From positions 472,131 through 536,130 of the forward strand of contig CAWHSS010000003.1 of assembly GCA_963832105.1 (NCBI GenBank): 64,000 bases of DNA. The letters run 5' to 3'. Position numbers and translations under genes: made by a program. The notes under the pieces are model-generated. The model searched no databases and was not told the DNA's origin. It was given only the letters and a program-made list of their open reading frames with translations. Below are positions 18,711-20,166 of this stretch, one piece after another; within the stretch, counting starts at the first letter, position 1, and each line of letters opens with the position of its first letter. This DNA is from an uncultured Chloroflexia bacterium (GTDB lineage: Bacteria > Chloroflexota > Limnocylindria > Limnocylindrales > CSP1-4).

Positions 18711-20166
18711 GTGACCGTCGTTCTCACCGGTCGGGATCTCGACCGACAGCAGCTCGTCCGCGTCGCGCGCGGCCGCGAGCCCGTCGAGCTCGGCGCGGAT
18801 GCCCGGGCGCGGATGATCGAATCGCGCCGCATCGTGAAGGCGGCGCTCGACCGAGGCGATGCGATCTACGGATCGAATACCGCCGTCGGCGTCCTCAAGC
18901 GCGTCGGCATCACGGCCGACGACGACGGACGGCTACGCCGGTTCGATGAACCGGCACCACATCGTCGGCCAGGGCCCGGACGCTGCCGAGGACGTCGTCC
19001 GCGCGACGATGCTCCGCCTCGCGAACCACTTCGCCGAGGGCTCGGCCGGTGTTCGGCCGGAGCTGGCGGACCGCGTGATTGCCGCGCTGAACGGCGGCGA
19101 GACACCGCGCCTCCGGACGATCGGCTCGATCGGCCAGGCCGATCTCGCACCGCTCGCAGACCTCGCCGCCGCCCTGTTCGACGGGCTGGCGCTCGAGGCC
19201 GGCGAGGGCACGGCGCTGCTCGACAACAACGCGTTCTCGACCGGCTGGGCGGCCCTCGCCGTCACCGACGCGATCGCGCTCCTCGACTCGATGGACGTGG
19301 CCGGCGCGCTGAGCCTCGAGGGCCTCGGGGCGAACCCGACGATGCTCCACGCCGCGATCGGCGAGGTTCGGCCGTATCCCGGGCTGCGGCGGACGCTCGA
19401 CCGGTTACGGAGAGCTGCTCAGCGGGAGCGCGATCTGGGATCCGGGAACGGCCCGCCACCTCCAGGATCCGCTGTCGTTCCGGAACCTGCCCCAGATCCA
19501 GGGCGCCTGCCGCGACGTCCTCGACCACGTGGAGGCGCAACTCGCGATCGAGCTCAATGCGTCCCAGGGCAACCCGATCGTCGTCGTCGCGGAGGAGCGG
19601 GTCATCTCCGTCGCGAACTTCGAGATCCTGCCCCTCGCGGCCGCCCTCGACTATCTCCGACTCATCCTCGCCACCGCCCTGACGAGCTCGTCCGAGCGGA
19701 CGGTCAAGTTGCTCGGCGCGCCCTGGACCGGGCTGCCGACGGGGCTGACGCCGCTGCCGGGAACGACCGAAGCGGGCTTGACCTACCTCAGCCTGGCCGC
19801 CCAGAGTCTTGCCGTGGAAGCCCGCCTCCTGGCCCAGCCTGTTTCGTTCGAGCTGACCTCGACCGCCCATGCCGAGGGGATCGAGGACCGGACGACGATG
19901 GCGCCGCTCGCCGCGCGACGTGTCGCGGAAATGGTCGGGCTCGGGGAGCGAATCGTCGCCATCGAGCTGGCCGTTGCCGCCCAGGCGACCGACCTGCGTG
20001 GCCTGCGACGGGGCAGCGGGACCGAGGCGGCGGTGGCGGTCGTGCGGCAGGTCGTCCCGTTCCTCGACACGGGCGACTCGGTCGCTGACGTGGAACCGCT
20101 GGTCGCGCGCGTCCGAGAGGGCGCCTTCGCCGGGCCGGGGCCGGGGCCGTGGGGCTCGCTCGATGA
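18711..20166 (+). pseudogene. Histidine/phenylalanine ammonia-lyase family protein lacking the Ala-Ser-Gly MIO triad, ~3 frameshifts
   Basis: Stitched from ORFs 18711.., 18859.. and 19529... It has GSIGQADLAPLADL where HAL has GSVGASGDLAPLAH. The likely true stop TGA (20164-20166) overlaps the iclR ATG. Confidence 0.75.

Follow-up and report, generated by a model that had tools for sequence, protein, structure and literature searches.

A lyase of the histidine ammonia-lyase (HAL) family that is without the Ala-Ser-Gly triad of these enzymes is encoded in a 64,000-nucleotide stretch of DNA (hereafter the window) from an uncultured Chloroflexia bacterium of the order Limnocylindrales (assembly GCA_963832105.1, contig CAWHSS010000003.1, positions 472,131 to 536,130 of the forward strand). 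In HAL, this triad cyclises to form the electrophilic cofactor 4-methylideneimidazole-5-one (MIO). Judging from its predicted active site and its relatives, we consider it fairly probable that the lyase is a MIO-independent trimethylammonia-lyase for an amino-acid betaine. An earlier note, made from the sequence alone, had raised this function, and it is still the best-supported reading: the top structural match is an ergothionase, three derived characters are shared with known enzymes of this kind, and the nearest relatives are likewise MIO-less.

The missing triad is a conserved character

The protein belongs to PF00221 (Lyase_aromatic; E 4.7e-99 in Pfam), but its score of 271 bits against the NCBIfam HutH model TIGR01225 is about half of the cut-off of 539. 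Its codons from 19123 to 19164 read GSIGQADLAPLADL, where the HAL of Pseudomonas putida reads GSVGASGDLAPLAH at the same position. In the alignment the Ala-Ser-Gly triad is missing and the loop is one residue shorter than in HAL (GSIGQAD against GSVGASGD), as the earlier note had described it. That note had also proposed that the motif be followed in orthologs. All 120 of the closest database proteins (68-96% identity, 453-518 amino acids) contain GS[IV]G-[QSE][AG]-D at this site, and the shorter, triad-less loop GS[ILV]G-x-x-D is present in at least 76 of 80 genome loci, the other four having been missed by the strict pattern. These loci are the best 80 of 161 relatives from a scan of one genome per species, and all are metagenome-assembled genomes (MAGs) of Limnocylindria (Chloroflexota) or Gaiellales (Actinomycetota) except for two contigs, which were binned as Verrucomicrobiia and Methylomirabilota. 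No ortholog carries Ala-Ser-Gly, and the missing triad is a conserved character and not a local sequence error.

In a HMMER search of 1.84 billion cluster representatives (50% identity), 846 matches fell below 1e-30, and the loop was surveyed in the 98 full-length representatives within the best 150 of these. Seventy-two have the triad-less loop that is one residue shorter, 15 have ASG or SSG, and the first triad-bearing protein is found at rank 73 among the nearest cluster representatives. At position 280 (HAL numbering), 66 of the 72 MIO-less proteins carry Leu or Ile, whereas the 15 triad-bearing ones invariably carry Tyr. Because the nearest relatives are mostly MIO-less and the first triad protein is so distant in rank, the lyase is placed by sequence inside a large MIO-less radiation, and is not a HAL with recent triad loss. 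In a few cluster representatives (e.g. P0132, P0157, P0164 and P0173) a recognisable loop is absent altogether.

The copy of the gene in the window is interrupted by three frame breaks, in agreement with the approximate number given in the earlier note. When the window was aligned to the intact orthologous contigs L001 and L002 (94% and 87% nucleotide identity, respectively), these were resolved as two 1-nt insertions, one at about 18923 and the other at about 19407-19410, and a net +2 change in a G/C-rich tail at 20134-20155. By tblastn with the intact orthologs P0001, P0004 and P0064, the gene runs in frame 0 from its GTG start at 18711 to about 18923, in frame 1 to about 19383-19410 and in frame 2 to about 20134, followed by a further shift before the TGA stop (20164-20166); the MIO-site codons are free of all three breaks. 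Relative to the same two contigs, the window has about 20 single-base insertions in the stretch from 11.8 to 21.6 kb, mostly outside homopolymers, and each gene there is affected, namely those for the dimethylglycine dehydrogenase (DMGDH)-like protein, MttB, MR_MLE, the importer ATPase and binding protein, the lyase, and a small protein encoded downstream. Deletion of bases 18923 and 19410 gives a 473-codon stop-free frame that is collinear with the ortholog, over which dN/dS is 0.074 in comparison to an intact ortholog of 96% identity. Because the insertions are window-wide and dN/dS is this low, the breaks most likely arose in assembly or sequencing, or are very recent at most, and their pattern looks like uncorrected long-read assembly error rather than decay of the lyase gene. 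Fully intact orthologs are plentiful in databases, and selection on the gene family is strongly purifying. The excess of single-base insertions probably extends over the whole window. A second case of assembly-specific frame errors in such MAG data sets is seen in a relative for which one region is present in two public assemblies (L003 and L004). The lyase and importer genes are identical in the two, but breaks in MttB, Aldedh, DAO and MR_MLE are confined to L004, the L003 copies being whole.

The closest proteins are uniformly labelled "histidine ammonia-lyase" in public databases, and for this clade the label is probably wrong. NCBIfam naming gave no equivalog-level assignment for the proteins of the cluster, the sole exception being the proV subfamily match of the ATPase.

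Active-site residues and comparison with characterised lyases

Trimethylammonia-lyases and their functional residues have been set out in two preprints on Shewanella enzymes (bioRxiv 10.1101/2025.08.13.670108 and bioRxiv 10.64898/2026.04.22.720169). As relayed there, a Tyr acts as the base, the substrate carboxylate is held by Gln, Arg and Asn, and the N-tau and N-pi of the imidazole by His and Glu. In an alignment of 44 diverse orthologs of the lyase (A1), Y53, H83, N173, Q251, R257, N287, F303 and E391 are invariant or at least 90% conserved, with Y53, Q251, R257 and N287 being invariant, and the same catalytic and binding residues are kept across two phyla. Three derived characters are common to the lyase, the ergothionase of Treponema denticola (TdETL) and the histidine-betaine lyase of Shewanella woodyi (SwHBTL): the two-residue loop, Leu at the Tyr280 position, and NF-E/D where HAL has NF-H.

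The specificity position is different. In ergothionase only, Lys384 (TdETL numbering) serves as the thiolate ligand and is essential for activity, according to the second preprint (bioRxiv 10.64898/2026.04.22.720169). This residue is Leu in the window and Leu, Ile or Val throughout the clade, from which we infer that the lyase is not a classical ergothionase. HAL, ergothionase and histidine-betaine lyase all keep the preceding Gln, for which the clade has Ser or Gly, and a clade-wide deletion of 23 residues directly follows the MIO loop. Among the 72 MIO-less representatives position 384 is Lys (20), Ile, Leu or Val (15), His (14), Arg (6), Tyr (5) or Trp (4), and this variability suggests that the radiation holds many specificities.

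The best match among solved structures is the T. denticola ergothionase (6s7j, 2.9e-48, full length), with HALs next at about 1e-39. The AlphaFold model of the 96%-identical ortholog P0001 (pLDDT 86, pTM 0.89) gives a TM score of 0.91 to 6s7j and 0.90 to HAL 1b8f, so that in the alignment with HAL and ergothionase called for in the earlier note, ergothionase comes out on top by both sequence and fold. Ergothionase, which is also found in Burkholderia sp. HME13, resembles the lyase in having the HAL fold, no MIO, a Tyr base and a cytoplasmic location, a two-residue loop (SIG-EG-D against SIG-QA-D), the QDPLSFR segment with Leu for Tyr280, the ANFE motif, and the His and Glu imidazole ligands. 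It is unlike the lyase at Lys384 (Leu), at Gln383 (Ser) and in the 23 residues deleted after the MIO loop. The kinship with ergothionase-type enzymes to which the earlier note pointed holds for fold, loop and top match, but does not extend to a strict ergothionase. HutH of P. putida (1b8f) shares the fold and the equivalents of Tyr53, His83, Asn195, Gln277, Arg283, Asn313, Phe329 and Glu414; unlike it, the lyase is without Ala-Ser-Gly and has Leu for Tyr280 and NFE for NFH. No signal peptide was found in the lyase, which is most likely cytoplasmic.

The S. woodyi enzyme Swoo_3913 (bioRxiv 10.1101/2025.08.13.670108) is likewise MIO-less (SVG-LS-D) with no Lys at position 384 (Asn439). It has the carboxylate, imidazole and Tyr residues in common with the lyase, and its substrate is that predicted for the lyase. 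Unlike the lyase, it is periplasmic, has a signal peptide and an insertion of about 21 residues, and works together with urocanate reductase in anaerobic respiration; in the loci read, neither FAD_binding_2 nor cytochrome genes were found in the neighbourhood of the lyase. The lyase combines conserved H83 and E391 with a neutral Leu at 384, as expected of the histidine-betaine type. As described, SO_3299 of Shewanella oneidensis (bioRxiv 10.64898/2026.04.22.720169) also has no MIO and carries the neutral Gln434 where ergothionase has Lys384, and it is set apart by being periplasmic and reductase-coupled. Its example shows that this position tunes specificity among histidine betaines (bioRxiv 10.64898/2026.04.22.720169).

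The kind of enzyme is already known, from ergothionase and from the histidine-betaine lyases of 2025-2026, and the lyase clade is a distinct branch, which by its sequences differs from the Shewanella enzymes in predicted location, context and loop architecture. Ergothionase is reportedly known as a kind of enzyme since 2013 and 2019.

Gene neighbourhoods in Chloroflexota and Gaiellales

The features of the lyase gene and its surroundings in the window are listed in Table 1. Directly upstream is an importer of OpuC/ProU-type architecture in four genes, comprising a ProV-like ATP-binding cassette (ABC) ATPase with CBS domains, two permeases and an OpuAC-fold binding protein. The ATPase scores 327.3 bits against TIGR01186, the proV betaine/proline/choline subfamily (cut-off 326.6). 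Because the binding protein keeps only one of the four cage tyrosines of ProX (see below), "betaine importer" is a family-level description of the putative ligand. After removal of a single-base insertion at about 18613, the binding-protein gene ends with TAG at 18630-18632, which leaves the 78-nt gap to the lyase GTG that had been counted before; the gap is identical in L001.

Table 1 Features of the lyase gene and neighbouring genes in the window. A1 is the alignment of 44 diverse orthologs.
Feature	Position	Strand	Remarks
Fe-ADH, GbsB-like	4243-5751	-	predicted demethylation island
SoxB-like DAO	5654-6886	-	predicted demethylation island
SoxA-like	7054-9474	-	predicted demethylation island
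Dimethylglycine/sarcosine-dehydrogenase-like (DAO-FAO_M-GCV_T)	9682-11966	-	several frame breaks; lower boundary approximate
Non-pyrrolysine MttB-family methyltransferase (quaternary-amine demethylase type)	12023-13592	-	structure matches 4yyc, 2qne
Enolase-superfamily protein MR_MLE	13631-14740	-	divergent from importer-lyase genes
ProV/OpuCA-like ABC ATPase with CBS domains	14869-16115	+	TIGR01186; frame breaks at about 15685 and 16053
ABC permease BPD_transp_1, OpuCB-like	16120-16791	+	seems fused to ATPase reading frame through frame errors
ABC permease BPD_transp_1, OpuCD-like	16791-17564	+	family match
OpuAC-family (PF04069) substrate-binding lipoprotein	17654-18632	+	one frame break near 18613
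GC-rich hairpin, 11-12 bp stem	18656-18682	+	within 78-nt gap between binding-protein and lyase genes
MIO-less HAL-family lyase gene	18711-20166	+	PF00221; about 484 codons once repaired
Tyr53 codon (IYGSNT)	18867-18869	+	catalytic base, HAL Tyr53 / TdETL Tyr54 by alignment; invariant in A1
His codon (NRHH)	18958-18960	+	HAL His83, imidazole N-tau ligand by alignment; at least 90% conserved in A1
GSIGQAD codons	19123-19143	+	GSVGASGD in HAL by alignment; kept in orthologs
QDPLSFR codons	19463-19483	+	Gln and Arg carboxylate ligands, Leu at HAL Tyr280, by alignment
Ser-Leu codons (GLTYLSLAAQ)	19790-19795	+	TdETL Gln383-Lys384 by alignment; thiolate-binding Lys replaced by Leu
Glu codon (GIEDR)	19883-19885	+	HAL Glu414, imidazole N-pi ligand by alignment; invariant in A1
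IclR-family regulator	20163-20969	+	start ATG 20163-20165 overlaps lyase TGA (ATGA)
Small conserved protein, PF27604 PB2B2_08 (precomputed Pfam)	21029-21531	+	two frame breaks

The hairpin in this gap folds at -37.6 kcal/mol (z -3.5). Of 21 orthologous intergenic regions 20 contain it, three of its base pairs show compensatory changes, and its tail is poor in U. Possible roles are those of a terminator, an attenuator or an element that stabilises mRNA, for example that of the importer. A sigma-70 promoter and terminator scan of the gap gave no match, and neither did a scan of the cluster against Rfam. Because of this conserved hairpin, and because a sister subclade has the lyase-IclR pair without the importer, co-transcription of importer and lyase is uncertain. 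The earlier note had described the lyase as co-transcribed with a betaine importer; OpuC/ProU-type genes are indeed directly upstream, but the shared transcript is in doubt and the betaine is supported at the family level only.

The binding protein is unusual at its predicted ligand site. Of the four cage tyrosines of ProX from Archaeoglobus fulgidus, only Tyr63 is matched by an aromatic residue, the others being replaced (Y111N, Y190C and Y214E), and Asp and Asn stand at the positions of the carboxylate ligands Lys13 and Arg149; this alignment is at about 22% identity, and other aromatic residues may substitute in the cage. Acidic or neutral residues at the cage and carboxylate positions suggest an atypical ligand. 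Some OpuAC-family systems (EgtU) import ergothioneine, but in EgtUV the permease and binding domain are fused (EgtUBC), whereas the window encodes a separate lipidated binding protein and two separate permeases. EgtUC structures are found among the matches of the binding protein, weakly (E 4.5e-9), and ProX and OsmF are closer. Four cysteines of the binding protein (DCDTNPLC ... GAC ... ELC) are invariant in the window and loci L012-L048.

Neighbouring genes were counted by tblastn with reference proteins over 42 Chloroflexota and 38 Gaiellales loci. The most constant neighbour in Chloroflexota is the IclR-family gene (35 of 42 loci). Its overlap with the lyase stop, which the earlier note had pointed out, is confirmed as the 4-nt ATGA at 20163-20166 and is also present in L001 and L002. 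Downstream of it, in 34 of the 42 loci, is a gene for a PB2B2_08 protein of about 170 amino acids (another example is L010 12290-12817), for which the Pfam and NCBIfam copies searched gave no match; a sigma-70-like promoter match is located upstream of this gene at 20992-21019. Two subclades are distinguished by the loop around position 384. In subclade A (GLTYLSLAAQ), which includes the window and most of its close relatives, the order is ATPase, two permeases, OpuAC-fold lipoprotein, lyase, IclR and PB2B2_08 protein, with the uptake system preceding the lyase in nearly all loci that have enough upstream sequence. Subclade B (GLSYLGIAVQ) keeps the lyase-IclR-PB2B2_08 order and has no OpuC genes. 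For an arginase-family gene located downstream in subclade B, an identity as HutG was not supported (41 bits against TIGR01227, cut-off 229).

A divergent operon encodes MR_MLE, sometimes an aldehyde dehydrogenase, a non-pyrrolysine MttB and a DMGDH-like protein, followed in the window by SoxA-like, SoxB-like and Fe-ADH proteins. MttB matches 4yyc (3.6e-106) and MtgB 2qne (1.7e-92), and the minus-strand run from 4243 to 14740 reads as a predicted aerobic choline/glycine-betaine demethylation island, which is consistent with recent work on MtgB-type demethylation in aerobes. A role of the MR_MLE protein as a betaine racemase of the HpbD type was not supported, since the HpbD structures 2pmq and 4h2h match at only about 5e-12, in comparison to 1e-27 for acid-sugar dehydratases.

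In Gaiellales, a MetE-like gene (Meth_synt_2, about 367 amino acids) is located upstream of the lyase on the same strand in 36 of 38 loci (L046, L051 and L053-L091), and in L058 its end abuts the lyase start. Other neighbours are an ATP-grasp gene, an MFS transporter and a peptide/opine-type (NikA/Opp-type) ABC system, often with a BHMT-like (PF02574) or GFO/IDH/MocA gene directly downstream. An ortholog of MR_MLE (57% identity) is located about 10 kb downstream, at the edge of the fetched flanks, and was detected in 8 of the 38 loci. Genes of methyl-onium metabolism flank the lyase in both phyla, MttB and DMGDH-like in Limnocylindria and MetE-like and BHMT-like in Gaiellales.

Elsewhere in the window, an Rfam match to the ASdes small RNA (41973-42040, minus strand, 57 bits, E 8e-11) is antisense to a fatty-acid desaturase gene (41568-42932) and may merely reflect conserved desaturase coding sequence.

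Proposed reaction, alternatives and meaning

For the proposed trimethylammonia-lyase, an alpha-N,N,N-trimethyl amino acid would enter the cell, in the lineage of the window, by the adjacent OpuC/ProU-type ABC system. Its carboxylate would be held by Gln251, Arg257 and Asn287, and Tyr53 would abstract the beta-proton. Trimethylamine would then depart without an electrophilic cofactor, which would not be needed because trimethylamine is already a good leaving group, and Leu in place of Tyr280 together with the shortened loop would fill the space that MIO and its proton relay occupy in HAL. The product would be a trans-2-enoate; from a hercynine-like substrate this would be urocanate or a derivative, together with trimethylamine. 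The unit is probably controlled by the IclR regulator, whose gene overlaps that of the lyase by 4 nt. Because the imidazole ligands His83 and Glu391 are conserved and the thiolate-binding Lys is lost, the most likely class of substrate is a sulfur-free histidine betaine, either hercynine or a ring-modified relative. Hercynine itself is a plausible candidate that we put forward only tentatively. The sequence characters and their conservation, the purifying selection and the gene surroundings are direct results, from which the leaving group, the substrate, the imported ligand and the regulation are deduced.

Several observations weigh against this proposal. Pairwise identity of the lyase to TdETL (29.6%) is not above that to HAL (31.8%), and identity to the S. 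woodyi histidine-betaine lyase is 24%. In the 383-384 loop, Ser or Gly replaces Gln and Leu replaces Phe, which sets it apart from each of the three imidazole-substrate enzymes characterised so far, and the 23-residue deletion is a further difference. The binding protein is without three of the four ProX cage tyrosines and both basic residues that bind the carboxylate, the conserved hairpin stands between the importer genes and the lyase, and the OpuC system is absent from the ortholog loci of subclade B and Gaiellales. No urocanase or other hut gene was found within 10 kb of the lyase in about 90 loci. Finally, the same residue logic mispredicted the substrate of SO_3299, which was expected to be histidine betaine and proved to be N-pi-methyl histidine betaine (bioRxiv 10.64898/2026.04.22.720169).

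Some of these points favour an onium-lyase for a betaine not derived from histidine, such as homoserine, tyrosine or tryptophan betaine, or for a sulfonium analogue, with the enoate handled by MR_MLE and dehydrogenases encoded nearby. The MR_MLE ortholog near the lyase in both Limnocylindria and Gaiellales, the recurrence of aldehyde and alcohol dehydrogenases, the aberrant specificity loop, the high variability of position 384 across the radiation (K, H, I/L/V, R, Y, W) and the absence of hut genes nearby would all fit. However, the equivalents of His83 and Glu414, which are imidazole-specific in HAL, ergothionase and histidine-betaine lyase, are conserved, and MR_MLE is missing from some loci that have both importer and lyase and was seen in only the minority of Gaiellales loci given above, at the flank edge. 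We regard such a substrate as unlikely. A different chemistry on the HAL scaffold, whether with another leaving group, as an isomerase or mutase, or in a binding or regulatory role, is suggested by the atypical pocket of the binding protein and by Gaiellales, where the lyase is translationally coupled to the MetE-like Zn methyltransferase homolog and located beside a peptide/opine-type ABC system and an MFS transporter, with no betaine system. The full set of residues for beta-proton abstraction and carboxylate binding is nevertheless conserved, and the hydrophobic replacement of Tyr280 tracks MIO loss in 66 of 72 relatives. Characterised MIO-deficient lyases also require a trimethylammonium group, as stated in a Shewanella preprint that cites the ergothionase structure paper, and this chemistry is therefore improbable.

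Classical ergothionase activity, converting ergothioneine to thiourocanate and trimethylamine with an ergothioneine importer as the source, is more improbable still. The best match in the PDB is an ergothionase, OpuAC systems of the EgtU type import ergothioneine, and EgtUC is among the binding-protein matches, but the essential Lys384 is replaced by Leu, Ile or Val throughout the clade and Gln383 is also lost. In addition, the importer is not a fused EgtUBC and its binding protein resembles ProX and OsmF more closely. Near the lyase, no genes for thiourocanate degradation, such as a thiourocanate hydratase or desulfhydrase, were found either in the window or in any of about 90 related loci. 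The three frame breaks could be those of a pseudogene in decay, or the gene could encode an ordinary HAL from which a sequence error has removed the triad. This is the least likely explanation of all: the roughly 20 insertions strike every gene of the region, removal of two bases restores an open frame under purifying selection, and intact orthologs are abundant, none with ASG, which already refutes the part concerning error.

The trimethylammonia-lyase proposal can also be put more broadly. It is possible, although we think it rather doubtful, that the clade represents an uncharacterised substrate specificity within the MIO-less "onium-lyase" radiation and a new betaine catabolic route in soil Limnocylindria and Gaiellales, tied to an enolase-superfamily enzyme and to methyl-group salvage by MttB/DMGDH or by MetE-like/BHMT-like enzymes. 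The betaine might be hercynine-derived or not histidine-derived at all. If this is true, abundant soil lineages would be unrecognised producers of trimethylamine.

In the literature searched, the characterised specificities of MIO-less lyases number three (ergothioneine, histidine betaine and N-pi-methyl histidine betaine). The MIO-less state nonetheless dominates the sequence neighbourhood of this lyase, and the Lys at the known specificity position is present in only 20 of the 72 MIO-less proteins. The clade described here is a distinct branch marked by its deletion and confined to uncultured soil Chloroflexota and Actinomycetota. If active as proposed, the enzyme would be a clean target for enzyme discovery and would correct a genome annotation, and it would provide a cytoplasmic, importer-linked route from fungal or actinobacterial histidine betaines to trimethylamine in soil.

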